64,000 nt of DNA from Candidatus Aminicenantes bacterium (GCA_016927475.1 JAFGMO010000012.1:120875-184874), one strand, 5' to 3'. Shown: positions 7,801 to 64,000, counted from the first letter of the stretch. Notes: a model not told the origin generated them from the letters alone. Made by a program: numbers and translations.

Positions 7801-7812
7801 TTCTAACTTTCT

Positions 7813-9615
7813 TTATGGTTTGCCCTTTTGAAAATCTTTGGGAAGTTCTTTTTTATCGGATAATTTTTGTAAGGATTGTTCACAGGCCCGGCTTATCATT
7901 TTATGGCTTTTTATTTTTCCTTCGAGGAGCAGCTCAACGGCTTTCTGCGAGCCGTTGAGTTCAAGTGCTTGAATGACAGCAAGACGAACTTTGTCCTGTT
8001 TTCTTTTTCCGAATAAGCTGGTTTTTTGAAGAAAGGAACGGAACAGCTCAAAGACCTCTTCATTATCCGTTCCGGCCAGGAATTTAAAGATTTCGGTCAT
8101 TTCCTTATCTTGTCTTTTTTTGAACCGCTTTTTTTGAACCAGGTCAACAAGGGCTTCGATGACGGGTTTGTCCGCAGGGAGATTCAGGTTTTTTGCGGCC
8201 TGAAGACGGATTTCCGGGTCCTTGTCATGGAGAAATTTCAGAAGCGTTCTGTTTGCGTATCCATATTCGAATGTTCCCAAAGCATGAATGAGGACTATTT
8301 TTATGTCCGGGTTTTTGCTCTCGGATAAAATGGCCAGAAGCGGAATGATCCCTTTTTCTCCAATGCTGACGATAATAGGAATAAGAGTTTTTATGACATC
8401 ATTGTTATATTTAGGTAAAAACGCGCTCAACTCGTTGATGTTCGTTCTGACAATTGCGTCTGTTATTCCAAATGTTCGATGCCGGATAGGGGAATCTTCA
8501 GATTCGTCCAGTATTTTGCAAAGGAGAGGAAGGCTTCTTTGACCAAGAAATTTAAGATAATCAAAAAAGGCGTCCATGTTTTCGATTTTTCCTTCCTGGT
8601 AATGGTCGGTGATGGTTTTTATGGAAGCCTTGTTCCGGACTTTATCCTTGAATCTTTCAATAATGAGGACTTTTTCGTCGTTGTGTCCGGTTAATATGTT
8701 TTGAAGTTCTTTCAAACGGTGCAATAGGAGAGAAATTTCTTCGTAGTCTTTTTCTTGAACGGCCTCCGGAATACATTTTTCCAGAACATTGAGAAGGGCG
8801 GAAAATTGAAAGTGTCGGTCCTCCAGATAAAGAATCTCGAAAATAAGAACGATGAGCTCGTTGAGGCTGGAAGCGTTACGAATGTCGTTTATTTGCTTCT
8901 GGAGTTTTTCCTCTTCGGCTTCGCTCAGTGCCGCTGAAACGGCTTCTTTAGTAGGGAGAATAGAAGAATAAGGGCCGCCTTCTCCGCGTGTGGTTTTATC
9001 CGCCTCAAAATCTCCACCCTGGCCCCGGGAGCCGGATATGTCCTGGCCGGGATTGTCATCATCATCGAGATGGACGGAACCTTTGCTTAGCTCTTCTTTT
9101 TCCACTTCGAACACAGATTTATCCTCGATATCTCCGATATCTGTATCCAGAAAATTATCAAGGGCGAAATACCCGATATGGGGAAAATTCTTTTCCCAGA
9201 GAGCTGTTACGATATCACATTCCTCTATGGGGAGGTCCGCATTGATCTTGAGTGTCCACATGAAATCGGTAAACTCATCCTGTTCCAATCCTTTATCAAA
9301 TGAAAGCTGCCGTACGCCGTCTTTGAAAAATAAGAAGGGAAGACATTTGGTCTCATTTTCGTAGCGTTCCACGACTTTTTCTTCGAATAGGAAGGCAGAG
9401 TTGTCGACTCCAAGGAAAAGACTATCGTAGGCGTCGAGGAACCGATGCATTTCCAAAAAGAGGACTTCCGTTGTGTTGATAACGGCCGGACTGTCAGCGG
9501 GATAAACTTTCATCACATGAAACGTCTTGTCGAAGGATTTTACGATCTTTTGAACTTCTTTGAATTCCCTTTGTGTGGCTTTCTGAATGCGGTCGCTGGA
9601 AAAATTTTTTGCCAT
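7813..9615 (-). CDS. HEAT/PBS-lyase repeat protein
   Basis: The C-terminal half has repeated ..DP.IR..A..L.. HEAT-like units (DPEIRLQAAKNL). There is an acidic low-complexity linker. It sits 13 bp upstream of the HD-GYP gene on the same strand. Confidence 0.55.
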   Translation of the reverse strand: MAKNFSSDRIQKATQREFKEVQKIVKSFDKTFHVMKVYPADSPAVINTTEVLFLEMHRFLDAYDSLFLGVDNSAFLFEEKVVERYENETKCLPFLFFKDGVRQLSFDKGLEQDEFTDFMWTLKINADLPIEECDIVTALWEKNFPHIGYFALDNFLDTDIGDIEDKSVFEVEKEELSKGSVHLDDDDNPGQDISGSRGQGGDFEADKTTRGEGGPYSSILPTKEAVSAALSEAEEEKLQKQINDIRNASSLNELIVLIFEILYLEDRHFQFSALLNVLEKCIPEAVQEKDYEEISLLLHRLKELQNILTGHNDEKVLIIERFKDKVRNKASIKTITDHYQEGKIENMDAFFDYLKFLGQRSLPLLCKILDESEDSPIRHRTFGITDAIVRTNINELSAFLPKYNNDVIKTLIPIIVSIGEKGIIPLLAILSESKNPDIKIVLIHALGTFEYGYANRTLLKFLHDKDPEIRLQAAKNLNLPADKPVIEALVDLVQKKRFKKRQDKEMTEIFKFLAGTDNEEVFELFRSFLQKTSLFGKRKQDKVRLAVIQALELNGSQKAVELLLEGKIKSHKMISRACEQSLQKLSDKKELPKDFQKGKP

Positions 9616-20974: not shown

Positions 20975-21051
20975 TGGTCGGGACGGGCGGATTTGAACCG
21001 CCGACCCCACGCACCCCAAGCGTGTGCGCTACCAGGCTGCGCCACGTCCCG
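20975..21051 (-). tRNA. tRNA-Pro (anticodon GGG)
   Basis: The reverse complement folds as a cloverleaf. The acceptor stem is CGGGACG/CGTCCCG, the D-arm GCGC-AGCCTGGTA-GCGC, the anticodon stem-loop CACGC-TTGGGGT-GCGTG, and the T-arm GGCGG-TTCAAAT-CCGCC, followed by discriminator A and CCA. Confidence 0.85.
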
Positions 21052-47392: not shown

Positions 47393-48763
47393 TTAAGGTT
47401 TTAACAGAGACATGATCTCTGTCTTGAATGTATCCAAAAGGGTATGGCTCTGTTCCTCGGTTGCTGCCTCGGCGATAAGGCGAATGATGGGTTCGGTATT
47501 GGACGGGCGAATATGAAGCCAGGCGTCATTAAAGGATATTTTGAGGCCGTCCAGCTCTGATATCCGTCCTTTGCTTTCATAACGTTTTCTAAGTTTTTTG
47601 ATAACCCGATGAGTTTGTTCAGGAGTTCCCGGAAGGCGGTCCTTGATCATGAAAAATTTCGGGATATTGTTTCGGAGTTCGGATAATGTCTTTCCTGATG
47701 TGGCCATGAATTCCAGGATTAATCCTGTTGCTGAAAAGCTGTCCCGGCAGGTATGGACCGCCGGGAAGATGACACCTCCGTTTCCTTCTCCGCCGATGAC
47801 GGCCTTGTGTTTTAAGACACCTTCAACGACGTAGATCTCGCCGATTTTTGTCCGGAAAACAGGAGACCGGTTTTCAAAGGCAATCTTATCAACGGCTATG
47901 GATGTCGAAAGGTTAACGACAACAGGCCCAGGATTCTTTTCAAGGATATGCTTGATGCACAGGGCCAGAGTAAGTTCCTCGCCGACGGCTTCTCCTTTTT
48001 CATTGACTATGGCCAGGCGGTCTGCGTCGGCATCTAAAGCCAGACCGATGTCCGCTTTCCACTGTTTCACTTCCCGGCAGAGAGGGCCGAGATTTTCCGG
48101 TGAGGGTTCATAGCTTCTGGCTCCTTTGAACCCGCTTCCGCGGTCGAAAATCCGGTATCGGCAGCCCAGTTCTTCCAAAAGACGGGGCATAAGAACGGTA
48201 CCTGCCCCTCCGCAGCAATCAGCTACAACCTTGAATTGTTTTTTCCGGATGGAATTTTTTTCAACAACATCCAACAGCCTTTGAATATGAGCCTCAAGAC
48301 GATGTTCTTTTTGGACCACCCGCAGGTCATGGCTGCGGACCAGGCTGAATTCTCCTTGATGGTAGATATCCAGAAATTCTTCGCTTTGGGCATGGTTCAG
48401 AAAAAGCCCTTTGTGATTAATGAATTTTAATCCATTCCAGTTTTCAGGATTATGGCTGGCGGTCACGGCCAATCCCCCGATATAGCGGCTTTCCCTGGCC
48501 AGGAATTGAAGAGTGGGAATGGGGCATATTCCTGCATCCACAGGGCGGCAGCCGACCGAAAGGAGACCTGAGATAACCGACTGGGTCAGCATGAATCCGG
48601 AAGAACGGGTATCGCGTCCGATAATCACTTCCCCCCGGCCGAGGAAAGTCCCGAAAGCCTGGGCGAATCTGGAAACGAGTTGCGGGGTAAGGCTTTCCCC
48701 GATGGTTCCGCGGACTCCGGAAATGCCTATTTTAAGCGGTAATTTATGTTTCATGATTCCCAC
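47393..48763 (-). CDS. phosphoglucomutase/phosphomannomutase family protein (catalytically competent)
   Basis: Active-site VTASHNP, metal loop DADADR and a sugar-binding loop. Confidence 0.8.
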   Translation of the reverse strand: MGIMKHKLPLKIGISGVRGTIGESLTPQLVSRFAQAFGTFLGRGEVIIGRDTRSSGFMLTQSVISGLLSVGCRPVDAGICPIPTLQFLARESRYIGGLAVTASHNPENWNGLKFINHKGLFLNHAQSEEFLDIYHQGEFSLVRSHDLRVVQKEHRLEAHIQRLLDVVEKNSIRKKQFKVVADCCGGAGTVLMPRLLEELGCRYRIFDRGSGFKGARSYEPSPENLGPLCREVKQWKADIGLALDADADRLAIVNEKGEAVGEELTLALCIKHILEKNPGPVVVNLSTSIAVDKIAFENRSPVFRTKIGEIYVVEGVLKHKAVIGGEGNGGVIFPAVHTCRDSFSATGLILEFMATSGKTLSELRNNIPKFFMIKDRLPGTPEQTHRVIKKLRKRYESKGRISELDGLKISFNDAWLHIRPSNTEPIIRLIAEAATEEQSHTLLDTFKTEIMSLLKP

Positions 48764-48796
48764 GATAAGTTGTGTTCCATTCCGTATTCAAAAAGT

Positions 48797-50143
48797 TCAT
48801 GTCATTTGTCTTACGTAATAGGCGGCTTTTTCCAAATATTCGGCGGCTTTGGCCTTTGTCCGGCTTTCGGCGATAATCCGGATCATCGGCTCCGTGGCCG
48901 AAGCCCGGATATGAAGCCAGCCGTCGCTTTTATAAATTTTTAATCCGTCGTCGGTATTGACCTTGTTTCTCGGATAATGCCGCTTCATTTCATTGATGAT
49001 GGAATGAACCTTGGCCGTTGGACAGGCGATTTTCTCCTTGATGATATGGCAGCGGGGAAGACGACGGATCAGATCGGAAAGTTTCTTTTTTTTCACGGCT
49101 AAAATTTCCAGGATTTTTCCCATAGCCAGGAATCCGTCAAAAGCGGGAAAAAAATCACGAAGGGCCAGACTTCCGCTTCCTTCCCCGGCTAAAACGGCGT
49201 CTTCATCCAGCATCGTCTGGATACCGTGTGATTGGCCCACTTTGGCTCTGACCAAAGGGCATTTGTGACGGGCGGCGACGGCCGTTATCATACTTGAAGT
49301 GGAATGGTTGGTGACGACAGGCCCGGGATTTTTTTCGAGATAATAATCCGCGATAAGGGGAAGAGTGTATTCCTCGGAAAGCGTTTCTCCGTCTTCAGCC
49401 ACGAGTGAGATGCGGCTTACGTCGCTGTTCAGGAGGAAACCGATGTCGGCTTTGGTGATACGAAGTATGGAGGCCACTTCCGTGGCATTGCGCGGACGCG
49501 GTTCAGGGTCATGGGGAAAATACCCCGATGGAGTATTGTTTATGGGGATAAGCTCACAGTTAAGAATCCGGCTGAAATGATTGATAAATCCCGCTCCCGC
49601 TCCGTTGCAGGGATCGATGACTATCTTGAACCCCCTGGCTGCGATGACGGAACGGTTGAGAAATGAGCCTAGTGCCTTGAAATAGGTCTCTGAATAGCCC
49701 TCTCTTTTTGACCGGGTTCCGAGCCGGTCAAAGGAGGCTTTTTTAAAACGTTCCAGGTGGTAGATGTCCAGGAGTTCTTCTCCCTGGTATTCATTAAGAG
49801 TGGTCCCTTCATGGTTGATGAAGGCCAGAGCGTTCCAATCTCCGCTGTTATGGCCGGCCGAAACGGAAACACCCCCCGCTGCTCCAGACTTTTTTACCGT
49901 ATACTGCAGAATGGGAGCGGGACAGACTCCCAGGTCTTCGACATCGCTTCCCGATGCCATAAGAGCGGCGCAAACCGAGGAAGCGATCATAGGGCTCGAC
50001 AGCCGTGTATCCCGTCCTATCAGGATTTTCCGGCTGGAGACGAGTGTGGCGAAAGCGCTGGCAAAGTCCATGGCTAAACAAGGCGTCAAAGCATCCCCGA
50101 TTATTCCTCGAACACCGGAGATGCTGATCTTTAAGAGTTTCAC
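48797..50143 (-). CDS. phosphohexomutase-family paralog with degenerate active site (SAGHN; metal loop NSDVSR)
   Basis: It aligns along its whole length with the neighbouring mutase. The phosphoserine (TASHN becomes SAGHN) and two of three metal-binding Asp residues (DADADR becomes NSDVSR) are replaced. Confidence 0.75.
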   Translation of the reverse strand: MKLLKISISGVRGIIGDALTPCLAMDFASAFATLVSSRKILIGRDTRLSSPMIASSVCAALMASGSDVEDLGVCPAPILQYTVKKSGAAGGVSVSAGHNSGDWNALAFINHEGTTLNEYQGEELLDIYHLERFKKASFDRLGTRSKREGYSETYFKALGSFLNRSVIAARGFKIVIDPCNGAGAGFINHFSRILNCELIPINNTPSGYFPHDPEPRPRNATEVASILRITKADIGFLLNSDVSRISLVAEDGETLSEEYTLPLIADYYLEKNPGPVVTNHSTSSMITAVAARHKCPLVRAKVGQSHGIQTMLDEDAVLAGEGSGSLALRDFFPAFDGFLAMGKILEILAVKKKKLSDLIRRLPRCHIIKEKIACPTAKVHSIINEMKRHYPRNKVNTDDGLKIYKSDGWLHIRASATEPMIRIIAESRTKAKAAEYLEKAAYYVRQMT

Positions 50144-50321: not shown

Positions 50322-51623
50322 CTAGGGGGTCTTTAACGCTCTCAGGGCCTCGATTTCGGCCAAACGAGCGAAATCTATAGCCTCGGCAAGAATACGGGCC
50401 GCCTCTTGAGGGCTGTGAAATCCGGTGCTGTTTTCCGAGACGATAAAGTCCCATCTCAACTGGCCTTTTCTTTGGGCTTTAAGGGCTTTGGCCAACTGTT
50501 CGTCAGATAGGCCCGCTGCTTTGGCTTCCTTGATGGCGTCTACGGCTGAAAGCAGAGCCTCTTCGCTTTTTCGAAGAAGGGCGGCCGTCTTGTGCTGTAT
50601 ATTGAGAATACGTTCCTTCAGTTCTTCTTCGGGCCAGTTATGACAGGTCTGGCAGGAGCTGTTTAGTTGAACGAGGGGACTCCTTATCCAATGGTCGCTT
50701 ATTTTGACCCCGCCCTCGCGGATATAGGGCATATGGCAGTCGGCGCAGGCAAGTCCCGAACGGGCGTGAATGCCCGTTTCCCAGAGTTCGAAATCCGGGT
50801 GTTGCACTTTTATCAGAGGTGCTCCCGTTTCTTGATGATTCCAGTCGGAAAATGCGTAAGCGTCGTAATGTTCTTCGATCGCCTCAATGGTCCGGCCCAT
50901 GCTCCAAGGAAAAGTTAAAACCTTGTTTTTCCCCTTGAAATAATATTCGGAGTGGCATTGGGCACAGACATAAGTGCGCATTTCCTGGCGGGTGGCCCGG
51001 GAAAGGTTCCGCCCGTTTTGAGCAAAAGCCCGAATAAAAGCCGGGCGGGTGATGCGCAGATCCATAGTGCGGGGGTCATGACAGTCGGCACAGGAGCTCC
51101 CTGTTTTTAAGTTCGGTTTTAGCTGGTTGTAGGGCGTTCTGTTGAAATTTTCCCATCCCATTTTTTTAATGAGTCCCGGGGCTTCGGCCGCGTGGCAGTT
51201 GACACAGGCACCGGGCTGGGAAACCACCATAACACGTTTGGACGTCATCTGGTCCAGTGAGGCGTAGATATGCCCCCGTTCTTCGTCATAGTCAATGCCG
51301 AAGGAATATCCGGCCCAAAGACGCTTCATGGCCGGATAGCGTTCCAGCTTGCTGTAGGGAGTTGACCCGCCGTATGGTGTTTCTCCGTAATCGGTCCGGG
51401 TTTTCATGAAGGAATCGAACTCAAAGGGGAAATTTTTCCCCCAAATACGGGGGTCGATCTCATCAGCGGAAATCTCGACGACCTGGAGTGGATATTGAAG
51501 TGCTTCTTGTTTGTGCTGCTTGATGTTGATGAGGAGGAGCAAAACGGCTGCCGTGGCTGTTGCGGCCGCCAGAAAAACGATGATGAAGATTCCCTTTGTT
51601 TTCAAAAAATGTTTCAGGCTCAT
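50322..51623 (-). CDS. nrfA: pentaheme cytochrome c nitrite reductase catalytic subunit (NrfA-like; CXXCH at active-site heme)
   Basis: Five heme motifs (CVNCH, CADCH, CAQCH, CADCH, CQTCH). Conserved YVCAQCHSEYYF, a signal anchor, and ~430 aa. Confidence 0.75.
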   Translation of the reverse strand: MSLKHFLKTKGIFIIVFLAAATATAAVLLLLINIKQHKQEALQYPLQVVEISADEIDPRIWGKNFPFEFDSFMKTRTDYGETPYGGSTPYSKLERYPAMKRLWAGYSFGIDYDEERGHIYASLDQMTSKRVMVVSQPGACVNCHAAEAPGLIKKMGWENFNRTPYNQLKPNLKTGSSCADCHDPRTMDLRITRPAFIRAFAQNGRNLSRATRQEMRTYVCAQCHSEYYFKGKNKVLTFPWSMGRTIEAIEEHYDAYAFSDWNHQETGAPLIKVQHPDFELWETGIHARSGLACADCHMPYIREGGVKISDHWIRSPLVQLNSSCQTCHNWPEEELKERILNIQHKTAALLRKSEEALLSAVDAIKEAKAAGLSDEQLAKALKAQRKGQLRWDFIVSENSTGFHSPQEAARILAEAIDFARLAEIEALRALKTP

Positions 51624-51637
51624 GATGATTCCTTTCC

Positions 51638-52117
51638 TTATCGGCGATTGCGGTGGCCGACGTTTCCGTGGCAGTGAATGCAGTCACCTTTGGTTTCCCC
51701 TGGTTTATTTATGGGAGTACGGCTGACGAATTTTCCGTGGCAGCGTAAACAGTTTTTCAAAACAATATTCCGGTTGGATGGTTGAATGATGATGGGTTCA
51801 TTGAAATCTCCGGTGGTGAAGGCGGAGCCGTGATTCCAGCCACTGATGGCTTTGACGGCGTATTTTTTCACAATGTTTTTCGGTGTGTGGCAGTCGTTGC
51901 AGCTTGCGGCTTGATGATGGCTGGACCGGTTCCAGGCATCGAACTGGGAGCGCATGACATGGCAATTGAGGCAGGCTTGGGGGTCATCACGGAGATAAGA
52001 GTGTCCACCGGCATAAAAAAAGGTGAAGAGTGAGAATCCAAAAAATATTCCGAAAATGATAACAAGCAAAAGAGCATATGAATGCTTTTTTTTCTTTGTC
52101 ACGGAAGTGTCTTTCAT
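51638..52117 (-). CDS. nrfH: cytochrome c nitrite reductase small subunit (NapC/NirT-type tetraheme quinol dehydrogenase)
   Basis: An N-terminal TM anchor and four CXXCH motifs (CLNCH, CNDCH, CLRCH, CIHCH). It is immediately upstream of nrfA. Confidence 0.8.
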   Translation of the reverse strand: MKDTSVTKKKKHSYALLLVIIFGIFFGFSLFTFFYAGGHSYLRDDPQACLNCHVMRSQFDAWNRSSHHQAASCNDCHTPKNIVKKYAVKAISGWNHGSAFTTGDFNEPIIIQPSNRNIVLKNCLRCHGKFVSRTPINKPGETKGDCIHCHGNVGHRNRR

Positions 52118-52289
52118 GAAAAAATATCTTCGTATGTTTCAAGTTTGATGATAAACGGGATAAATAAGCAGGTCAATGTATTAGAACAAAATTTTTCATT
52201 TTGTTTGCCTTTTCCAAAATATGTATTGAGTTGGATTATTTTGAGGCATACAATGAAAAAGTCATTGTATACAAAAAGAAGGAAACGTC

Positions 52290-53870
52290 ATGAGCGCCGG
52301 TAAAAACATATTTTTTTATGGAAAAGACAGTTTGACTGTTGGGGCGGCCTTGCGGATTGTTCAAGGAGAAAGCAAGGCTGTCCTGGATGGAGATACCAAG
52401 CAGCGGGTGAAAAGAAGCAGAAAGTACGTTCGGAAGATGGTCGAAAACAAGGATACGGTCTATGGAATCACGACCGGATTCGGTCCGTTGTGCACGACCA
52501 ACATATCACCGGAAGAGACACAAAAACTCCAGCACAATATTCTCAAGAGCCATAGTGTCGGGGTGGGAGAATCTATCCCCGATAGCATTGTCCGTTTGAT
52601 GCTCATCTTAAAAATCCATGCCCTTTCAAAGGGATTTTCAGGTATTTCGCCTTCCACACTGGAACGTATGATTCATCTGTTTGAACAGAATATCGTCCCT
52701 GTCGTCCCCGCCCAAGGTTCGGTGGGGGCTTCGGGCGATTTGGCGCCGCTGGCCCATCTTTTTCTTCCGCTCATTGGATTGGGCCGGGTGCGGTTTCAAG
52801 GAAAAGAAAAATCCGCAGGTGATGTGCTTCGAAAACTCAACCTCAAACCGCTGGAATTGGGACCAAAGGAGGGGTTGGCCTTGATCAACGGAACCCAGTT
52901 TATGACCGCCTTCGCGGCCTCCGGTCTGGCCCGGTTTCTCAACTGCCTGGACAACGCCGATATCGTCGGAGCCATGAGCCTGGATGCCCTGATGGGATCG
53001 GTCCAACCCTTTAACGCAGCCCTTCAAAACCTTCGGCCTTATACCGGCGGCAGGCATGCGGCCCATCGCATCCGTTCTCTTTTGACGGGTTCCGAGATCA
53101 ATGTTTCGCACCGGGACTGCGGCCGGGTCCAGGATCCCTATTCGTTGAGGTGTATGTCCCACGTGCATGGGGCATCCAGGAATGCCTGGCTTCATCTCAA
53201 GGAAACATTGCATGTTGAGATGAATGCCGTCACGGACAATCCGGTCATTCTGGAGGACGGGTCAGCCGTAAGCGGCGGTAACTTTCACGGGCAGCCCCTG
53301 GCCTTGCCCCTGGATTATGCTTCTTTAGCTTCCAGCGAACTGGGAAACATTTCCGACCGAAGGACATATCTTATGCTTAAAGGAGATTCATGTGGCTTGC
53401 CCCGTCTTCTTGTGGATCATTCGGGCATCAACTCGGGCTTTATGATTCTTCAGTATACGTCGGCAGCCTTGGCCAGTGAAAACAAAAGCCTCTGTTTTCC
53501 CCCCAGTGCGGACAGCATTCCTACCTCTCTCGGGCAGGAGGATCATGTCAGTATGGGTGCTGTCAGCGGAAGAAGACTCCACGATATTCTTCAGAACCTG
53601 GAAAACATCTTGGCCGTTGAGCTTCTTGCAGCCACTCAAGCCCTTGATTTCAGAAAACCTTTAAAAACGGGAAAAATCTTGAATGATTGTTATAAGCGGG
53701 TGAGGGAAAAGATTGACCACCTTGATGAAGACCGGCTTTTGGAACGGGACCTTAAGGAAGCCCGCAAACTCATCACAAGCGGAGAATTGGTAAGAATTTC
53801 AGCGGACACCGCAAAAAAGCATGGGTTGAACTTAGCGGGGGACGATGGGCCGCTGTTTATCCTCGACTGA
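52290..53870 (+). CDS. hutH: histidine ammonia-lyase (MIO-dependent aromatic amino acid ammonia-lyase family)
   Basis: An ASG triad (GSVGASGDLAPLAHL) that forms the MIO cofactor. 526 aa. Confidence 0.8.
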   Translation: MSAGKNIFFYGKDSLTVGAALRIVQGESKAVLDGDTKQRVKRSRKYVRKMVENKDTVYGITTGFGPLCTTNISPEETQKLQHNILKSHSVGVGESIPDSIVRLMLILKIHALSKGFSGISPSTLERMIHLFEQNIVPVVPAQGSVGASGDLAPLAHLFLPLIGLGRVRFQGKEKSAGDVLRKLNLKPLELGPKEGLALINGTQFMTAFAASGLARFLNCLDNADIVGAMSLDALMGSVQPFNAALQNLRPYTGGRHAAHRIRSLLTGSEINVSHRDCGRVQDPYSLRCMSHVHGASRNAWLHLKETLHVEMNAVTDNPVILEDGSAVSGGNFHGQPLALPLDYASLASSELGNISDRRTYLMLKGDSCGLPRLLVDHSGINSGFMILQYTSAALASENKSLCFPPSADSIPTSLGQEDHVSMGAVSGRRLHDILQNLENILAVELLAATQALDFRKPLKTGKILNDCYKRVREKIDHLDEDRLLERDLKEARKLITSGELVRISADTAKKHGLNLAGDDGPLFILD

Positions 53871-55049: not shown

Positions 55050-56813
55050 ATGTTAAACAAGGAGGATGTTATGAAGGGCAAGCGGACTTTTATCCTATGT
55101 TTGGTTTTTTTGCTTGTGGCCGCCGGTATCTGTCAGGACCAGGATATTTTTGAAGCCATTGTCAAAGGCGACCTGACCACGGTTAAATCTCTTTTAGAAA
55201 AAGATCCCGGACTTTTGATGGCCAAAGGCAGAAACGGAGTCACACCCCTCCATATTGCTGCATTTGAGGGGCAACTGGAGATCGTCAAGATGCTTTGTGA
55301 AAAGGGGGCCGATGTTCGGGCCGGAGACACTCAGCTAGGAACTCCCCTTCATTATGCCGCTTATAATGGCCAGGACGCGGTGGTCGGTTTTTTGATCGAC
55401 CGGGGTGTTGATGTCGACATCAAAAACGAAAGCGGAGCAACACCTCTTTTTTTGGCTGTTAACCGGGGGAAGAAGAGCACGGCCGACCTGCTCATTTCCC
55501 GCGGGTCGGACATCAATGCCATGGATTCCATTGGCTACAGTGCACTGCGCATCGCCTGCATACGGAATAATGGAGAAATGGTCCAGTTTCTTGCTGACAA
55601 AGGGGCCAGAATCAACCAGCGTTTAGATGCCGGGAATACGCTTCTTCATGAGTCCGCTGCCGAAGGGCGGAAAGAGATCATGGAGATTTTTATCGCCCGG
55701 GGATTGGATGTTGAGGTTAAAAATAAAGCTGGACAAACGCCGCTTCATTTGGCGGCTTTTTACGGACAAAAAGACTGTGCGGCTTTTCTCATCGAGAAAG
55801 GTGCGGACATCAGCCTTCAGGATGGAGCCGGAGATACCCCTCTTCACGGGGCTGCATGGGGAGGGCATAAAGCCGTCGTTGAGCTTTTGGTATCCGGGGG
55901 AGCCGATCTCGTGGTTCAAAATGCGGAGGGACGAACAGCTCTTGATTGTGCTTCGGCCAATGGGAAAAAAGAGACGGCAGATTTCATGCGGGCAGCCGGA
56001 GCCCAGGGGGCGGCCGGTTTGTGGGAGGAAAAGGCATTCGCCAAAGTCAAGCAAGCACAGGGCAAGGGATTAAAAAGTCCCCTGAAATTCACCATACTCT
56101 ATGACAATTATGTTTCCCGGGAAGGGACAAAGTCCGATTGGGGTTTTTCCTGTCTTATCGAGGGCGCAGAAAAAACCATCCTCTTCGATACGGGAACTCG
56201 AAGCGATATACTCTGGCACAACATCAAGGAGGTGGATGTTGATGCGAGCAGGGTGGATCAGATCGTTATCTCCCATATCCACCTCGATCACACGGGCGGC
56301 TTGTTCTCCGTGCTGGAAAAACATCACGATGTTGAGGTTTATCTGCCCCATACTTTTCCTTATGATTTTTTCCGCAGGGTTGATAAAAGCGGAGCTCGAA
56401 GCCAACCGGTCAACCAACCCGTGCAGATCTGTGAAAATGTCTATTCAACCGGAGAGATGGGAGACCGGATCAAAGAGCAGTCTTTGATCATCAACACGCA
56501 GAAAGGCTTGATCATTGTCACCGGCTGTTCCCATCAGGGAATCGTCAACATTCTCGACAGGGCCCGGGAGATGTTCGACAGTCCCATTTACCTTGTGTTC
56601 GGCGGATTCCATCTCGGAGGAACGCCCAGGGCCGAACTGGAAAAAATCGTTCAAAGCTTCAAGGATAAAGGGGTTGTGAAATGCGGAGCCACTCACTGTA
56701 CTGGGGATGAAGCCATCGGTATGTTCAAGGAAGCCTATGGAGAAAATTATGTTTCCTTGGGAACGGGAAGGGTTCTGGAAATCGAGACGGCCGAAGAAAA
56801 AAGCGAAAAATAA
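55050..56813 (+). CDS. secreted ankyrin-repeat protein fused to a metallo-beta-lactamase-fold (COG1237-type) domain
   Basis: A signal peptide and about 8 ankyrin repeats (G.TPLH.AA..G). The C-terminal part has HIHLDHTGG (HxHxDH) plus downstream His/Asp ligands. Confidence 0.7.
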   Translation: MLNKEDVMKGKRTFILCLVFLLVAAGICQDQDIFEAIVKGDLTTVKSLLEKDPGLLMAKGRNGVTPLHIAAFEGQLEIVKMLCEKGADVRAGDTQLGTPLHYAAYNGQDAVVGFLIDRGVDVDIKNESGATPLFLAVNRGKKSTADLLISRGSDINAMDSIGYSALRIACIRNNGEMVQFLADKGARINQRLDAGNTLLHESAAEGRKEIMEIFIARGLDVEVKNKAGQTPLHLAAFYGQKDCAAFLIEKGADISLQDGAGDTPLHGAAWGGHKAVVELLVSGGADLVVQNAEGRTALDCASANGKKETADFMRAAGAQGAAGLWEEKAFAKVKQAQGKGLKSPLKFTILYDNYVSREGTKSDWGFSCLIEGAEKTILFDTGTRSDILWHNIKEVDVDASRVDQIVISHIHLDHTGGLFSVLEKHHDVEVYLPHTFPYDFFRRVDKSGARSQPVNQPVQICENVYSTGEMGDRIKEQSLIINTQKGLIIVTGCSHQGIVNILDRAREMFDSPIYLVFGGFHLGGTPRAELEKIVQSFKDKGVVKCGATHCTGDEAIGMFKEAYGENYVSLGTGRVLEIETAEEKSEK

Positions 56814-56901: not shown

Positions 56902-57915
56902 TCAGTAAGATTCTTTTTCCTCTTCGATTTTTCCTCTAAAAACTCGGTAAAGATAGACCGTAATACCGATAACCACCGGCATGCCTAGGATGGCGATGAT
57001 AAGCATCACCTTGAGGGTCAGTTCGCTGGAACTGGCGTTGGTGGCCATCAGGCTGAGGGAAAGGTCGTTGGAAGCGCGCACGAGATAGGGGTAATGGACG
57101 GAACCGGCGATACCCCAAAGCCCCAAAAAGGCCGTTGACGAGGCACCGAAAACCCATCCTTCCCGGCTTTTTTTCAAACCGGCAAGCAGGAATCCCAAAG
57201 AAACGAGAATAAGAACGGTGAAAATCCAGGCCGTTGGTTTGGATGCGGCTCCCGGCAGATAAACCAGGCCTAGAAGGAAACAAAGGATAAGCAGGGCGGT
57301 ATATATCCAAAGGAGAGTGACGGAGAACCGGCCGGCCCTTATTTTGAGGGGGCCCTCGTTTTTTAAAAAGGCAAAGGTTGTTCCTTGAAGAAGAATGGCG
57401 GCACATCCCAGCAGGCCTACGGCAAGGGGAAACGGGCGAATCAGGGTTAAGAAGTTTCCGATGAAATCCATGTTTTCGTTGAGAGGTATGCCGACTAAGA
57501 CATTGCCCAGGGCGACACCGAAAAACAGAGCCGGCAGAAAGCTCCCCAGGGTGAAGGCCCATTCCCAGATTTTTTTTCTCCTGGGGTCATGGGCCCTGAA
57601 TTCGAGGGAAACGGCCCTGAAAATAAGGGAAAAAAGAACGAGCATCAGGGCCAGATAAAATCCGCTGAAAACCGTAGCGTACGCCTGGGGAAATGCGGCG
57701 AAAAGGGCTCCGCCTGCGGTTAATAGCCAGACTTCGTTGCCGTCCCAGAATGGCCCGATGGTTGAAACGAGCTTCTCTTTTTCTTCTTCGTTCCCGGCCA
57801 AAAAAGGAAAAAGCGTTCCGATGCCCAGGTCAAACCCGTCAAGGATGGAATATCCCGCCAGGAGAACACCGATAAGAACAAACCAGATATTTTGTAGAAG
57901 GTTCCAGGTATTCAT
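56902..57915 (-). CDS. cydB: cytochrome bd ubiquinol oxidase subunit II
   Basis: Begins MNTWNLLQNIWFVLIGVLLAGYSILDGFDLGIG and has 8-9 TM helices. The start is set at the internal ATG at 57915, overlapping the cydA stop (ATGA). The longer ORF-track N-terminus is out-of-frame overlap with cydA. Confidence 0.85.
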   Translation of the reverse strand: MNTWNLLQNIWFVLIGVLLAGYSILDGFDLGIGTLFPFLAGNEEEKEKLVSTIGPFWDGNEVWLLTAGGALFAAFPQAYATVFSGFYLALMLVLFSLIFRAVSLEFRAHDPRRKKIWEWAFTLGSFLPALFFGVALGNVLVGIPLNENMDFIGNFLTLIRPFPLAVGLLGCAAILLQGTTFAFLKNEGPLKIRAGRFSVTLLWIYTALLILCFLLGLVYLPGAASKPTAWIFTVLILVSLGFLLAGLKKSREGWVFGASSTAFLGLWGIAGSVHYPYLVRASNDLSLSLMATNASSSELTLKVMLIIAILGMPVVIGITVYLYRVFRGKIEEEKESY

Positions 57916-59249
57916 GGTCTGCCTCCTTCTTGGTTTTTTTCCAGTTCCTGCAGACCTTTTCTGATGAGTTTTAAAATGACCATCAGACCCACGGCGCCGA
58001 TGAGAGCGTAAACGAGAATAAACAATATTAGGGTGAGAAGAATATTTCCTGAAGGCACCACGGGTGAGACGGCATCCGCCGTGCGCAGAATCCTGTAGAC
58101 GGCCCAAGGCTGCCGTCCGACCTCGGCCGCGATCCAGCCCCATTCGTTGGCCAGGTAGGGCAGAGGAAGGGCCAGGAGGAGGGATCGAAGAAACCATTTG
58201 GTTTGGTGAGTTTTTTTGCGGACCAGAAGATAAATACCAACCAGGGAAAGACCGATGAACACCATTCCGAAGAGAATCATGAGGTGATAGGAGACAAAGG
58301 GAAGAAAGACCGGCGGCTGTTCGTCGGCGGGAAAGACGTCGAGTCCTGTAACCTCGGCCTCGGGATCAAAGTGAATGAGCAGGCTGAGAAGTTTGGGGAC
58401 CTCGACGAGGAGATGGGTTTTTTGGTTCTGTTTGTCGGGAAAGCCGAAGAGTGCCATGGGCGCGCCTTTTTGGGTTTCCCAGAGGGCTTCGAAAGCAGCC
58501 ATTTTTTCCGGTTGTGTTTCGGCGACCTTAACCGAATGGGCGTGCCCCGAACCGAGCTGAAGAAGGGAGGCGGCGATGAACACAATAAGCGATAAGCGCA
58601 GGATGATTCGGGCCGGGATCAGATGCCTTTTTTTGAGAATATACCAAGCGGAGATGGCGGCGGCGAAAAGGGAGCCGGTAATCCAACCGGCCAGAACGAC
58701 GTGAAGATAACGGACCATGGTGGAAGGATTCAAGGCGGCCTGAAAAAAATTCGTCAGGACGGCCTTGGTTCCTTCCATGCGAAAGCCGGCCGGAGTCTGC
58801 ATCCATGAATTGGCGATGATGATCCACAATCCGGATAGGTGCGAGGCGAAAAAGACCAGGAAAGCGGAAAACCAGTACATTTTTTGGGAGACCTTTTTTC
58901 GCCCGAAGATCAGAATACCCAGGAATACGGATTCCAGGAAAAAGGAAAAAATGCCTTCCGCTGCCAACGGGGCGCCGAAAATGTCGCCGACGGTCCGGGA
59001 ATATTCCGACCAGTTATTGCCGAAGGCGAACTCCAGGACGATTCCCGTGGCCACTCCCAAGACAAAAACAATGCCGAGAAGTTTGATTAGAAAGGATGAT
59101 ATTCTTCGGTAGAGGTCGTCCTTTGTCTTCAGGTAGAGCGATTCGACCAAAAGGATGATGAACGTCAGCCCAAAGGTCGTCGGAGGAAAAAGAAAATGGA
59201 ATCCTGCTGTGAAGCCGAATTGGATTCTGGCGAGAAGAACGGCATCCAT
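57912..59249 (-). CDS. cydA: cytochrome bd ubiquinol oxidase subunit I
   Basis: Begins MDAVLLARIQFGFTAGFHFLFPPTTFGL and has a Q-loop region. 445 aa. Confidence 0.9.
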   Translation of the reverse strand: MDAVLLARIQFGFTAGFHFLFPPTTFGLTFIILLVESLYLKTKDDLYRRISSFLIKLLGIVFVLGVATGIVLEFAFGNNWSEYSRTVGDIFGAPLAAEGIFSFFLESVFLGILIFGRKKVSQKMYWFSAFLVFFASHLSGLWIIIANSWMQTPAGFRMEGTKAVLTNFFQAALNPSTMVRYLHVVLAGWITGSLFAAAISAWYILKKRHLIPARIILRLSLIVFIAASLLQLGSGHAHSVKVAETQPEKMAAFEALWETQKGAPMALFGFPDKQNQKTHLLVEVPKLLSLLIHFDPEAEVTGLDVFPADEQPPVFLPFVSYHLMILFGMVFIGLSLVGIYLLVRKKTHQTKWFLRSLLLALPLPYLANEWGWIAAEVGRQPWAVYRILRTADAVSPVVPSGNILLTLILFILVYALIGAVGLMVILKLIRKGLQELEKNQEGGRP

Positions 59250-59660
59250 ACCCAGCCTCCCTTTTTTTTAAAATCAATATTTCGTTCGTTAAAATCTGCT
59301 TTTATTTTACCAAGTTCTCTCTTGCCAAATTCTTTTGTAATAAAAGCAAATAAAAAAAATATAAAAATACCAGTAATAATTATAAATATAATACAAAAAA
59401 TATTTTTTGTATTTTTTTGTTATTTTCAGGGGGCATTTTTGCTCCTTTTTGCCGGATACCATATCAGACTCGACAGTTTTTGCTTTTCAAACAAAAAATA
59501 ATAATGTTTTGAAATGTTGTCAATAATGTTGCAAAAAATGTTGTTGAGACTGAATTTGTTAGTATGAATTATCTTAATTTTGGGATGCAAATTTCATTAA
59601 ATTTAGGTAAAATAATAAAATAAGCATTATCCAAAAGTCATTAAAGGGAGGAGTATGGTT

Positions 59661-60644
59661 ATGAAAAAGAAAAAAAATGTCTTTAAGTCTGTCGTTTGGT
59701 GGTTAACAAAACCTGCTAAATGGAGGGAAACAATAGAGACGCTTGCTGAAAAAGAAATCAAATTAGGGGTCGTTATATTTGTATTTGTCTGTCTTGTTGT
59801 ATTCTCGTCTACATTTTTGATGGGGAGAACATATGACAGATCTCACCTGTATAATATCCTTGTAGAAGCTCATGGATTAGTTTTTGATATCTTTGTTTTT
59901 GGCATAATCGTAATGATTTTTAATAAATTTGCGGAGAGAAGACGGAATATTCTGAGGTGGATAGAAGAAATTGATGATTACAAAGGTTGGGATGAAAAAG
60001 AAGCTATGTACAGGATTGTTGGAAATATTAAAAGATTGAACAGAGAAAAAGTTACGAGGATTAATTTACATGATTGTTTTTTAGAAAAAGCCAACCTCAG
60101 TGGACTCAATCTCCAAAAAACCCATTTTGAGAATGCACATCTCGATTTTGCCAATCTCAGGTTTGCCAGTCTGATGAAAGCCAATCTCGAAGGAGCCCAT
60201 CTCAAGGGAGCTCATCTTGTAGGAGCCAATCTTGAGAAAGCAAATCTCTGGGAAGTCGATTTCATGGGAGCCGAACTATTCGCAGCAAACCTCGTTGGAG
60301 CCCATCTTAGTGGAGCTCGTCTCAAGGGGGCATGTTTAGCAGTGACCAATCTTGCGGGTACTGTTTTCTGGAGAGCAGATCTTGAGGGTGTCGATCTCGG
60401 GTCTGCCCATCTCGTGGGAGCCGACCTATTCGAAGCAAATCTCGGTCGAGTAAATTTCGATCGAGCAAATCTCGATCGAGTAAATCTCGAGGGAGCTAAT
60501 CTCACTGGAGCAAAAAATCTTACACTTAATCAACTATCAAAGGTTGAAACATTATATAAAGCAAAACTCGATCCAGAGCTTTTAGCTGAAGTGAAGCAAA
60601 AGTATCCGCATCTTTTGGAAAATCATAAACCTGAGAAGAAATGA
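59661..60644 (+). CDS. membrane-anchored pentapeptide-repeat protein (copy 1)
   Basis: Two N-terminal TM helices and a conserved ~60-aa juxtamembrane domain (EAHGLVFDIFVFG...WDEKEAMYRIVGNIKRLN). About 45 pentapeptide units (A(N/D)L.G) follow. RBS agggaggag. The gene lies in a ~30% GC region. Confidence 0.7.
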   Translation: MKKKKNVFKSVVWWLTKPAKWRETIETLAEKEIKLGVVIFVFVCLVVFSSTFLMGRTYDRSHLYNILVEAHGLVFDIFVFGIIVMIFNKFAERRRNILRWIEEIDDYKGWDEKEAMYRIVGNIKRLNREKVTRINLHDCFLEKANLSGLNLQKTHFENAHLDFANLRFASLMKANLEGAHLKGAHLVGANLEKANLWEVDFMGAELFAANLVGAHLSGARLKGACLAVTNLAGTVFWRADLEGVDLGSAHLVGADLFEANLGRVNFDRANLDRVNLEGANLTGAKNLTLNQLSKVETLYKAKLDPELLAEVKQKYPHLLENHKPEKK

Positions 60645-60791
60645 GGTAGTTATTTCAATATTCCTGCTTTTCTTTTCAACAGATCCTCTCCCCTAAATTC
60701 TAACTTCCTATGATGTAAATCCCGCCTAATTCAGTTAAAATAACAAATTCAGCATTATCCAAAATTCATTAAAGGGAGGAGTATTGTTGTG

Positions 60792-61643
60792 ATGAATAAA
60801 ATCTCAAAAATTATTAAATCTATCGGCCAGGGGATAATTAAGTTTTTAAAGTTGTTGTGGGGAATGATAGAGAGACTGGCAGAAAAAGAAGTTTTTTTGG
60901 GACTCATACTTCTGATAATTATTGGGTTTTTTGTTATATATCTAACTTTACATGCTGGAAACAAATACAAAGATACTTTCTTGAATAACATTTTTATTGA
61001 AGCTCACGGACTTGTGTTTGACATCTTCGTTTTTGGTGTGATTGTCATAATTTTTGATAAGATCGCAGAAAGACGACGGAATATTAAAAGATGGAAAGAA
61101 GGAATTGACGACTTTAGAGGTTGGGATGAAAAAGAAGCTATGTACAGGATTGTTGGAAATATTAAAAGATTGAACAAAGAAAAAGTAACCGAGATTGATT
61201 TAAATCTTTGTTTTTTAGAAAAGGCCGATCTAAGTTGGACTGATCTTAGGGGGGGGGATCTCGAGAGGGCCAATCTCATTGGAGCTAATCTCATTGGAGC
61301 CGATCTTAGGGGAGCCATTCTAATTGGAGCCGATCTCAGTTGGACTGATCTTAGGGGGGGGAATCTCGAGGGAGCCGTTCTCATTGGAGCTAATCTCATT
61401 GGAGCTAATCTTAAGGAGGCTAATCTCGAGGAGGCTAATCTCATTGGAGCCGATCTTAGGGGAGTAAAGAAGCTAACAATTGATCAACTATCAAGAGTTA
61501 AGACTTTATTTAGGGTAGAAAACCTTGATCCTGGATTTAGAGCTGAAGTGAAGGAGAAGTATCCGCAGCTTTTTAGAGAGGCCTATGTGGATATATTAGA
61601 TAAAAGGCGATTGAGGGCCAGGGATCCCGCCCCCCGAGATTGA
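60792..61643 (+). CDS. membrane-anchored pentapeptide-repeat protein (copy 2, tandem paralog)
   Basis: Same N-terminal architecture and a duplicated leader/RBS. The repeat region is more regular (LIGANLIGADLRGA...) and carries an internal ~100-bp duplication and two in-frame poly-G tracts. Confidence 0.7.
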   Translation: MNKISKIIKSIGQGIIKFLKLLWGMIERLAEKEVFLGLILLIIIGFFVIYLTLHAGNKYKDTFLNNIFIEAHGLVFDIFVFGVIVIIFDKIAERRRNIKRWKEGIDDFRGWDEKEAMYRIVGNIKRLNKEKVTEIDLNLCFLEKADLSWTDLRGGDLERANLIGANLIGADLRGAILIGADLSWTDLRGGNLEGAVLIGANLIGANLKEANLEEANLIGADLRGVKKLTIDQLSRVKTLFRVENLDPGFRAEVKEKYPQLFREAYVDILDKRRLRARDPAPRD

Positions 61644-61737
61644 AATGATCGCTGTGCGGTTATGCGCCTCATTTGGTAGACGTGGGGATGGTGGGAATAT
61701 TCTCATTTTAAATTCTATCTGGCACATAGCTAAATTA

Positions 61738-62754
61738 TTAAAAATTGGCAACTGGTATAGAAGTTGAATTGATAATTCTATTAATTTTTTCTTCCAAATA
61801 TTGTGGCTCTGTATAGGGAGGTTTTACTACCTTTTGAAAAAGATTTAAGAATTGCCTGTCAGCAATTCCCCTAAATAGTTCATTTCTCTTTGCTGAATAG
61901 TCAATTAAAGAGTTTTTTATATCCATAAATTCAGAATAACAAATAGTTATTGCTTCCTCCTCGATGTTTTTTGCAAACTCTCTTACCTTGTTTTCTATAT
62001 TTTCATTAATAGGGGGCTTAATATCTTTTATCTTTTCAAGAATTGTTTTGATATTTTCTAGTTTTTTTTTGTCTTCGTCGTAGGCGTTAATTAGATTGGT
62101 TATTTTTCTGTCGAGCTCTTTTTTGATTATTTGCCTTTTCTTAAGGGCTTTTGTTTCTTTGAAAATATACCTTCGATTAATACAATCAACTTTTATAATT
62201 GATAAAAAATTTTGCTTTCTTAAGTTGCTGTATCTGATTTTCAGCAAATAACTAGATATTTTTTCAGCTGTCTCGCGTCTAAGAAATGGAAGATCAAGTT
62301 TTATTTTTTCAGTAATAGTTGCAACAGATTTTGCATCTCTGTTTTTAAATAAGATATGGAGATCTTGTTTAAAAAATTGTATAAAATCCCCGGACTTTAG
62401 TGGAACATAAGAATTAAATTGAAGATAGTAAAGATTGCTTTCAACTGTTTCTATTTCAATATTCAATGCAGCACTCTCACCAATATTTTTTAAAATCATT
62501 GAAAGAGGTTCTACACCGATTATTACACAAGGCCTCAACATCAAATCTGTTTGTGTTGCAGTGGCTTTTTTAAGTCTATTGGTTTCCCATGCATACCACC
62601 AAATCGCAAGGAACGTTAAAAATAAAATAAAAGTTGAAACAATTTGGAGCTGAATAGGAATTTTTGCTCCAGAAAATATACAACTTAGTTTATATAAAAA
62701 AACATCAAATATCATAACCCCTCCATTAGATTCTTGTTGAAAAGCATTAACCAA
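61738..62754 (-). CDS. hypothetical membrane-anchored protein (unknown function)
   Basis: 338-aa ORF with one N-terminal TM helix (IQLQIVSTFILFLTFLAIWWYAW) and a Lys/Glu-rich helical C-terminal region. AT-rich. No recognisable motif. Confidence 0.45.
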   Translation of the reverse strand: MVNAFQQESNGGVMIFDVFLYKLSCIFSGAKIPIQLQIVSTFILFLTFLAIWWYAWETNRLKKATATQTDLMLRPCVIIGVEPLSMILKNIGESAALNIEIETVESNLYYLQFNSYVPLKSGDFIQFFKQDLHILFKNRDAKSVATITEKIKLDLPFLRRETAEKISSYLLKIRYSNLRKQNFLSIIKVDCINRRYIFKETKALKKRQIIKKELDRKITNLINAYDEDKKKLENIKTILEKIKDIKPPINENIENKVREFAKNIEEEAITICYSEFMDIKNSLIDYSAKRNELFRGIADRQFLNLFQKVVKPPYTEPQYLEEKINRIINSTSIPVANF

Positions 62755-62868
62755 GCCTCCTGCCGGAATTATTCTACCAAAACCAGGCTATTTCAGGAAG
62801 GGATTGTCTTTACTAGGGGAGGGGAGGCTGGTAAAATGTTTGTATCAGCATATAAGGAGATTTTATAT

Positions 62869-63444
62869 ATGTCAAAAGGAAAGGTAAAAATAATCTTTTG
62901 GTGGCTAAGTCCATTTGTTGCCATAATTTCTCTAATCAATTTCCTTTTTTTTGATAATAGAATATTTAAGTTTATCTGGGAAAAAATTATTGTGTATTTA
63001 TGTAATTTAGATTTACCAGATTTAGTTTTTATAATTGCAATTCTAGTAATATTCTTTTTTTTGTGTGTGTTAAATAGAAAAATAAAAAGTGAAATGATTT
63101 CATTTAAAAAAGATTTCAATGAAATCAAACGACATCCTACTGAAGAAATGAAAGTCATCTTGGAAAGAATCATGAAAGCAAAAAATTGTAAAGCTAATGA
63201 AACATATTTACAAAGAGAATTTATAAAAAAATTTAATTTAGAAAATAAAGATAAACATGTTTTTTGGCAAAGATATAATGAAAATATAAGAAAATTAAAA
63301 AATATCCAAGCAATAGAAGAAACAGGAAGTCTTGACACTGAAATTTATTTGACAATTAGAAGCCCCTTTGGAGATATCCTTTATAATGAATGGGGATTAA
63401 ATATATCCTTGAAAGAAAATATTGAGAAGGGGAGGCGAGAATGA
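62869..63444 (+). CDS. hypothetical small membrane protein (unknown function)
   Basis: The start is set at ATG 62869, which has an aaggag RBS. There are two TM helices and then a soluble Lys-rich domain. It is divergent from the preceding gene. Confidence 0.4.
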   Translation: MSKGKVKIIFWWLSPFVAIISLINFLFFDNRIFKFIWEKIIVYLCNLDLPDLVFIIAILVIFFFLCVLNRKIKSEMISFKKDFNEIKRHPTEEMKVILERIMKAKNCKANETYLQREFIKKFNLENKDKHVFWQRYNENIRKLKNIQAIEETGSLDTEIYLTIRSPFGDILYNEWGLNISLKENIEKGRRE

Positions 63445-64000
63445 AAGATAATAAAATAGAAATTACTATACTCGAGAAGGATAAAAATGAAAAAATCCAG
63501 GAGATGAAAAGAATAATAGACGAAATTGAAAAAGTACCGATTGATGAGTTAATTCAAGAAAAAGAATTGGGAACATATAATTTTAAGGAGCAAAAACCTG
63601 TTTTTGAATACATCAAAAATATATTTGAGGATATTAAAAACCTTAGTTACAAAGATATTCCTCTGAAAAAATTGGAAGAGCTTTCAACTGCAGCAAATGA
63701 TTGCAGGAAACTGTTCAAAACAGTAACTGATTTCAGAATTAATTATACTGAAGAACAAAGGAGAATAAAGGGCGATGAGATTCTTTCTTTTGAAAAACGA
63801 TTGTTTGACCTTGTAATACCAATACTTGTCCATTTGTCGGGGGCAGAGGTGTTAAGGAGGGTAAATCTAGCATATAAGAGAATCCAATCACGATATGATG
63901 AAGCTAGAGAATGTGTTGTAGAAATAAAAAAAATAAAAGAATCTTCACAAATAGCTGCAAGAGAGATGGGGGTAACAACTCAGGCAAATTATTTTGAAAG
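63441..64000 (+). CDS. hypothetical coiled-coil protein (partial, continues past window end)
   Basis: The ATG overlaps the upstream stop (ATGA). The open frame runs to the window edge and is Lys/Glu-rich and helical. It is not in the ORF track because it is incomplete. Confidence 0.4.
   Translation, partial: MKDNKIEITILEKDKNEKIQEMKRIIDEIEKVPIDELIQEKELGTYNFKEQKPVFEYIKNIFEDIKNLSYKDIPLKKLEELSTAANDCRKLFKTVTDFRINYTEEQRRIKGDEILSFEKRLFDLVIPILVHLSGAEVLRRVNLAYKRIQSRYDEARECVVEIKKIKESSQIAAREMGVTTQANYFE

Follow-up and report, generated by a model that had tools for sequence, protein, structure and literature searches.

A putative horizontally acquired low-GC island beside cydAB in a Candidatus Aminicenantes genome, and its candidate single-gene membrane defence effector

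Does a short, sharply AT-rich segment next to a core respiratory operon hold one compact membrane system, or a patchwork of genes that happen to lie together? The question is raised by a stretch of 64,000 nucleotides from a Candidatus Aminicenantes bacterium (GCA_016927475.1, JAFGMO010000012.1:120875-184874), referred to here as the window. Its last part, from position 59250 just after cydA to the window end, carries five genes, here called A to E, which an earlier reading of the bare sequence (the original prediction) had taken for a foreign, defence-type module. With moderate confidence, this segment is interpreted as one visible portion of a mosaic accessory island of low GC that was gained by horizontal transfer and in which E is a candidate single-gene membrane defence effector. 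An acquired accessory island is argued for by the composition of the DNA, by the patchy, AT-shifted spread of those two families for which relatives exist, and by the ORFan character of C and D. Against a single machine speaks that the five genes were found together nowhere else; under this interpretation, three or more independent pieces make up the mosaic beside the core cydAB operon. The features discussed below are the following (aa, amino acids; TM, transmembrane).

59250-59654, no strand: intergenic and AT-rich (GC about 0.27), separating gene A from the divergent cydA; the shift in composition has its left edge here.
59584-59673, plus strand: leader/promoter copy 1, 80% identical to 60712-60801.
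59655-60644, plus strand: gene A, 329 aa; pentapeptide-repeat family PF00805 (E 2.2e-34, 117.1 bits), with TM segments found by TM scan.
60712-60801, plus strand: leader/promoter copy 2, upstream of gene B.
60789-61643, plus strand: gene B, 284 aa; PF00805 (E 1.3e-29, 101.8 bits), tandem paralogue of A.
61738-62715, minus strand: gene C, 325 aa (338 aa if TTG 62754 starts); predicted single-pass, no family match.
62836-63444, plus strand: gene D, 202 aa (191 aa with the NCBI start at 62869); ORFan with two TM segments by TM scan and a lysine-rich tail.
63441-64000, plus strand: gene E, truncated by the window end after 186 of its 336 codons; full protein P0015 / MBN1271218.1, stop expected at about 64451.

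The GC content was 0.474 at positions 1-59249 and fell to 0.331 at 59250-64000, and the five 1-kb bins of the island lay 3.1-6.8 standard deviations under the mean of 59 host bins (z -3.1 to -6.8). The tetranucleotide L1 distance between the island and the host reference was 0.538, against a host maximum of 0.176, and the GC-corrected tetranucleotide correlation with the host was 0.44, against at least 0.89 for host segments. At the codon level, GC at third positions (GC3) was 0.20-0.35 in the five island genes and 0.51-0.62 in nine neighbouring genes, and the combined fraction of lysine, isoleucine and asparagine was 0.20-0.33 versus 0.13-0.19. Since GC3 falls and the tetranucleotide correlation is so far under that of the host segments, the shift exceeds an effect of amino-acid content alone. 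The fall in GC is uneven, and the pentapeptide-repeat arrays stay at 0.42-0.46. By composition and codon usage, the segment classifies as an island. The abrupt drop after cydA and the different codon style that had been noted in the sequence were borne out on recomputation, and the proposed horizontal origin is well supported by GC, GC3 and tetranucleotide deviation; likewise, as had been claimed, no housekeeping match was obtained for any of the five genes.

The composition changes precisely where the sequence upstream of the start codon of cydA begins. This gene is intact, its ribosome-binding site sits in the AT-rich part, and the intergenic region 59250-59654 probably holds the promoters of both cydA and gene A. 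No Rfam family scored above its gathering score in this region, and the Rfam, promoter and terminator scans of the island yielded nothing meaningful.

The unity of the five genes was analyzed by tblastn in 88 loci carrying an E homologue (80 from metagenomes, 6 from IMG/VR and 2 further) and in six loci of the two-TM pentapeptide-repeat family to which A and B belong. Homologues of A, B, C or D were detected in 0 of the 88, and homologues of C, D or E in 0 of the 6. Profile comparisons of C with E and of D with E revealed no relation. The defence-type module of the original prediction holds only in part: the E family does show the behaviour of a defence-island gene, but one compact system of five genes is not supported.

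Gene E is the most informative piece. The original prediction had described a coiled-coil protein translationally coupled to the gene before it. The coupling stands, as the stop of D overlaps the start of E in the sequence ATGA at 63441-63444, but the protein is not merely a coiled coil: full-length E has a predicted cytoplasmic, helical N-terminal domain of ~190 aa, an invariant GV.Q/F/W segment, a TM hairpin (aa 201-219 and 235-253) and a conserved tail with the family motif HNxxxNxHRxNALxTFxxF...D..TKNAVLL.AT..IF. The AF2 model (pLDDT 79.7) consists of helices only, two of which are very long and run through the membrane hairpin. D and E were also recovered together, with identical sequence, in an independent Logan assembly of SRR13394437 (contig L008). 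Past the E stop, at positions 1697-1880 of that contig (window about 64452-64635), the DNA is AT-rich and contains CCGGCTCCGGAGTCCCGGAGTCCC, a short direct repeat of high GC, with a C7 run after it.

The E family is widespread. A HMMER search of 1.84 billion representative proteins gave 20 members at E <= 1e-3, mostly of 326-344 aa, and at least 108 metagenome loci and 6 IMG/VR loci were collected; in addition, a Siphoviridae protein matched the E model (Foldseek E 3.7e-10). No Pfam, NCBIfam, PADLOC or PHROG model reached its threshold with the family, for which DUF6161, SLATT_1 and 8xMP gave weak and inconsistent matches. No match to E was obtained among PDB sequences, and no E homologue was found in the scan of genome contigs. 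In the 25 long loci, the E-family gene was always lower in GC than its flanks (25/25), by 6.6 points on average, in hosts that range from 28 to 65% GC.

The neighbours of the E homologues were then clustered, and type I restriction-modification (R-M), confirmed by Pfam, emerged as the single dominant theme. Among the loci whose flanks reached 3 kb or more (n=39), 9 had a type I R-M or DNA-methylase gene within 5 kb, often adjacent or overlapping, which is a raw count without a formal background rate for random accessory genes. In locus L108 (7650-14619), an AbiEii-HsdS fusion overlaps the E homologue by 4 bp, and HsdR, which carries a C-terminal Schlafen/AlbA_2 domain, follows 44 bp downstream. 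In three other loci hsdM lies immediately upstream of the E homologue (L136, L156 and L158), HsdS overlaps its end in L105, and an N6_N4 methylase occurs in L130; E-family genes are also embedded in type I R-M operons in L162 and L133. Besides these, GmrSD was found beside the E homologue in L146 and Mrr in L164, and a tyrosine-integrase cluster occurred within 3 kb in four loci. The gene that precedes E homologues is not constant: its strand and its distance differ between loci, and its product ranges from 61 to 1166 aa; therefore, the E family has no conserved D-like partner.

Genes A and B make up a second piece. Both scored far above the PF00805 gathering cut-off of 20.2 bits, in agreement with 15-nt periodic repeats in the DNA, and their description by the original prediction as two tandem, TM-anchored pentapeptide-repeat proteins was upheld by this match and by two TM segments in each. 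In A, predicted TM segments at aa 37-55 and 68-86 are followed by the conserved motif RWxEEIDDY[KR]GWDEKEAMYRIVGNIKRLN next to the membrane, ~33 pentapeptide repeats and a conserved C-terminal cap. B has two N-terminal hydrophobic segments in the TM scan, as in A, and ~21 repeats. The proteins are 45% identical, and the DNA identity reaches 73-92% over the second TM segment and the juxtamembrane linker; judged from sequence, a unit of about 1130 bp was duplicated in tandem and the copies have diverged, and the two repeat arrays are unequal in length. That A and B are membrane-tethered pentapeptide-repeat proteins is the only grounded statement about them.

Within B, an internal tandem duplication of 105 nt (61224-61462), whose copies match at 90%, is recent. 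Each copy contains one poly-G tract (G9 at 61249-61257 and G8 at 61354-61361), and these are the only G runs of at least 8 in the whole 64-kb window. The tracts could serve as a slipped-strand on/off switch; their number is not above the shuffled expectation (3 overlapping pattern matches, covering both tracts, versus a shuffled mean of 6.5). The duplicated leaders share a 31-nt core, AGCATTATCCAAAA[G/T]TCATTAAAGGGAGGAG, at 59623-59653 and 60751-60781, identical save for one G/T position. This core gave 2 matches in the window, where 0 were expected by chance, both immediately upstream of the pentapeptide-repeat genes, and could act in the regulation or the translation initiation of both genes. 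The leader is not conserved upstream of the pentapeptide-repeat homologue in locus L001.

The N-terminal 135 aa of A and B define a small family, with 11 metagenome homologues at 41-59% identity. Its common features are two TM helices, an EAHG...FD motif in the second of them, a basic stretch and an invariant GWDEKEAxxRIVGNI[KR]RLN before the repeats. As basic residues follow the second TM helix, the positive-inside rule suggests that the repeat domain is cytoplasmic and that the repeat beta-helix would face that compartment. This N-terminal part matched phrog_12514 (E 2.8e-7); it had no Pfam or PDB match, and a viral scan with its profile gave no match. The genes of the family lie 4-9 GC points under their flanks. 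Their surroundings differ from locus to locus. One homologue follows AIPR, TIR and TPR genes (L001), and another stands beside other pentapeptide-repeat genes and a UvrD helicase (L004). In L001, a separate 680-aa gene with a metallo-beta-lactamase (MBL) fold is also present, two genes before the homologue.

C and D are the remaining pieces. For C, the original prediction had given a single-pass membrane protein of 338 aa on the opposite strand. The minus strand and the single predicted TM segment (aa 21-39) were recovered, together with a helical C-terminal third, but the length is likely 325 aa, with ATG 62715 rather than TTG 62754 as the start, because the paralogue P0002 aligns from that methionine. 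Among 5.8 billion clustered proteins, C matched only itself and a 51% identical paralogue, JXB26_18530, on a 118-kb contig of the same metagenome-assembled genome (MAG), while D matched only itself. Neither C nor D had a match in Pfam, NCBIfam, PADLOC, PHROGs or PDB sequences, and the AF2 model of C was unusable (pLDDT 45). For D, the two TM segments and the coupling to E were as first described.

From these data, a working model can be proposed for each piece. For A and B, the most likely role is that of a rigid, DNA-like surface, tethered at the inner membrane, that would bind and hold a DNA-handling enzyme. This role of DNA-mimic binder is carried over by analogy from Qnr/MfpA-type proteins; pentapeptide arrays form a right-handed quadrilateral beta-helix able to mimic DNA. 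C would be a lineage-specific single-pass membrane protein and a separate piece. E, as a best guess, would act as an abortive-infection-type effector that perturbs the membrane: a trigger would be sensed by the helical domain in the cytoplasm, after which the TM hairpin, together with the conserved cytoplasmic tail, would breach or depolarise the membrane. D may serve as a locus-specific partner or regulator. A bolder version of this proposal appears doubtful. In this version, the E family (~335 aa) would be a new and widespread membrane effector, encoded by a single gene, that acts against phages or by abortive infection and is carried within type I R-M operons and by phages; D would be a private two-TM partner acquired here, and A and B would be DNA-mimic decoys to which DNA-processing enzymes of invaders are lost at the membrane.

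Several observations weigh against an acquired island with a defence effector. At the left edge, no integrase, tRNA or flanking direct repeat is visible, the sole tRNA of the 64-kb window being at 20975-21051. The right edge falls beyond the window end, and contig L008 adds only 184 bp, still AT-rich. No homologue of A to E adjoins cydAB in 17 loci, whose genomes share only cydAB with the window; because these nearest cydAB genomes (CydA <=70% identical) share no other synteny, the insertion is not demonstrable by comparison. GGAGG ribosome-binding sites are common to island and host genes, and the island genes are therefore well adapted to the lineage. On the defence side, no PADLOC-DB v2 model matched A to E at E <0.03 or full-length E at all, and seven E-family proteins gave only scattered, chance-level PADLOC matches. 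Many E homologues have non-defence neighbours (NRPS-like, NuoD and PurQ), and one pentapeptide-repeat homologue (L175) lies among MscS, RecX and Band_7 genes. Moreover, E does not qualify as a SLATT effector (SMODS and SLOG-associating 2TM effector, CBASS-like), with 12.9 bits versus 26.3 for Pfam and 41 for NCBIfam, and Foldseek E >1.

Four other explanations were considered against this background. That the island marks the border of a prophage or another integrative element, whose integrase and structural genes would lie past the window end, with A to E as cargo ("moron") genes such as superinfection-exclusion proteins, is unlikely. It is consistent with the E family on six IMG/VR contigs and in a Siphoviridae protein, with the phrog_12514 match of the pentapeptide-repeat N-terminal domain, with integrases within 3 kb of E homologues in four loci and with DNA still AT-rich 184 bp beyond the E stop. 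However, the visible 4.75 kb holds no phage structural, replication or integrase gene and no other PHROG match, the left edge has neither a tRNA nor an att-like repeat, and most E homologues have cellular neighbours on their contigs.

The genes could instead be native, lineage-specific envelope genes whose low GC comes from relaxed or different selection on fast-evolving membrane proteins, as the host-like GGAGG sites, the C paralogue elsewhere in the same genome and the lack of visible mobility genes would allow. This appears quite unlikely, since the GC3 drop of 0.25-0.35 and the tetranucleotide correlation of 0.44 exceed amino-acid bias alone, the homologues of E and of the pentapeptide-repeat genes are patchy and lower in GC than their flanks in very different hosts, and no E or pentapeptide-repeat homologue stands upstream of cydA in other Aminicenantes.

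The joint action of the five genes in one compact, novel membrane system, whether for defence, abortive infection or contact-dependent inhibition, is improbable. Five membrane proteins packed in 4.8 kb of foreign-looking DNA, the translational coupling of D and E, and the defence-type neighbourhoods of E homologues and of one pentapeptide-repeat homologue speak for it. Against it stand the lack of co-occurrence in the 88 and the six loci and the opposite strand of C. As C and D are essentially ORFans, with no homologue outside the MAG, no conserved module is possible in current data, and a conserved multi-gene operon was rejected. No PADLOC model matched any of the five proteins, which also contain no CdiA/CdiB, Rhs, secretion or toxin domain in Pfam and NCBIfam, and a contact-dependent inhibition or polymorphic toxin locus was rejected too.

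An assembly or binning chimera joining two organisms at about 59250 is very improbable: in its favour are the assembly of the source genome from a metagenome, the abruptness of the change, its intergenic position and that no independent contig across 59250 was found, but cydA is intact with its ribosome-binding site inside the AT-rich part, GGAGG sites occur on both sides in a contig of 185.6 kb, and D/E are identical in the Logan assembly.

As to the surroundings, the source is a Candidatus Aminicenantes MAG at NCBI, in a contig of 185,581 bp where C, D and E bear the locus tags JXB26_03005, JXB26_03010 and JXB26_03015. The left flank consists of core metabolism (nrfHA, histidine ammonia-lyase, two phosphoglucomutase/phosphomannomutase genes, an ankyrin-MBL fusion and cydAB), which reaches right up to the island. 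The intervals 50322-52117 (minus), 47393-50143 (minus) and 52290-53870 (plus) contain genes for a cytochrome c nitrite reductase of the nrfA/nrfH type, for two phosphoglucomutase/phosphomannomutase paralogues that lie side by side and for a histidine/aromatic ammonia-lyase; a GC dip at 51750-52500 coincides with nrfH and an intergenic gap. The fusion, of 587 aa (55050-56813, plus), joins many ankyrin repeats to an MBL-fold domain directly beside cydB, and the presence of MBL-fold genes both here and near the pentapeptide-repeat homologue of L001 is probably a coincidence. The mechanically called cydB open reading frame (ORF) (56902-58197, minus, 431 aa) has a long arginine/glycine-rich N-terminal extension overlapping cydA; the real cydB would be about 332 aa, because the alignment with other CydB proteins starts at the methionine of MNTWNLLQNIWF (about 57900). 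A second, milder GC dip (0.41 versus 0.47) at 7001-9000 covers the genes 6340-7800 (minus) and 7813-9615 (minus), an HD-domain (HD_5) protein and a 600-aa ORF.

Taken as a whole, the locus is an accessory island of an ordinary low-GC kind, from a phylum that has received little study, and its patchwork nature spares effort on a five-gene system that the data do not support. The two-TM pentapeptide-repeat family is a second small undescribed family. The E family, which is widespread, consistently AT-shifted relative to its hosts, repeatedly found in type I R-M operons and described by no Pfam, NCBIfam, PADLOC or PHROG model, offers a cheaply testable candidate defence gene.

A and B can be compared with Qnr, MfpA, AlbG, McbG and HglK, the last of which is a membrane-anchored pentapeptide-repeat protein of cyanobacteria. 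They share with these proteins long A(D/N)LXX-type repeat arrays well over the Pfam threshold, and differ in the two N-terminal TM helices and the GWDEKEAxxRIVGNI[KR]RLN motif, seen in 11 metagenome proteins and one PHROG only. A role as Qnr/MfpA gyrase protectors was rejected, as the scores were 46.7 bits versus 240 for Qnr and 39.9 versus 360 for MfpA (NCBIfam equivalog cut-offs); these also require a soluble protein of about 180-220 aa, whereas A and B are membrane-anchored and of 284-329 aa. HetL and PipB were likewise rejected, with scores far under the model cut-offs.

For E, a weak match to DUF6161 extends over the TM hairpin and tail (E-values of 0.006 and 0.003 for E itself and one homologue). 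The assignment was rejected at 16.6 bits versus a gathering cut-off of 27, with only 2 of 13 family members matching. A DUF6161 family has been flagged by a language model as possibly antiphage, with a mechanism that is not known (bioRxiv 10.1101/2025.01.08.631966). A second comparison is with the accessory genes of type I R-M operons (PrrC, RloC and Abi-type), since in at least 6 loci an E homologue lies between hsdM, hsdS and hsdR genes or directly beside one, with the same orientation. A position between hsd genes is classic for R-M-linked defence add-ons. E differs from the PrrC/RloC type in being a membrane protein without a nuclease, ATPase or anticodon-nuclease domain; in addition, no hsd gene is visible in the window and E is coupled to the ORFan D.

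The third comparison is with SLATT proteins. E differs from these in its own 190-aa N-terminal helical domain and its HNxxxNxHRxNAL motif, and no SMODS, SLOG or cyclase partner of E was found in the window or in the E loci examined. The likenesses are a TM hairpin with a conserved helical segment after it in the cytoplasm, an NCBIfam SLATT_1 alignment that spans model positions 7-127 of 132, several SLATT proteins among the weak Foldseek matches, and an accessory, defence-linked genomic habit. Among the five genes, E is thus the one for which a functional guess is most defensible: in its habit of lying in hsd operons and in its architecture, it resembles known abortive-infection effectors that act on membranes, such as SLATT proteins.

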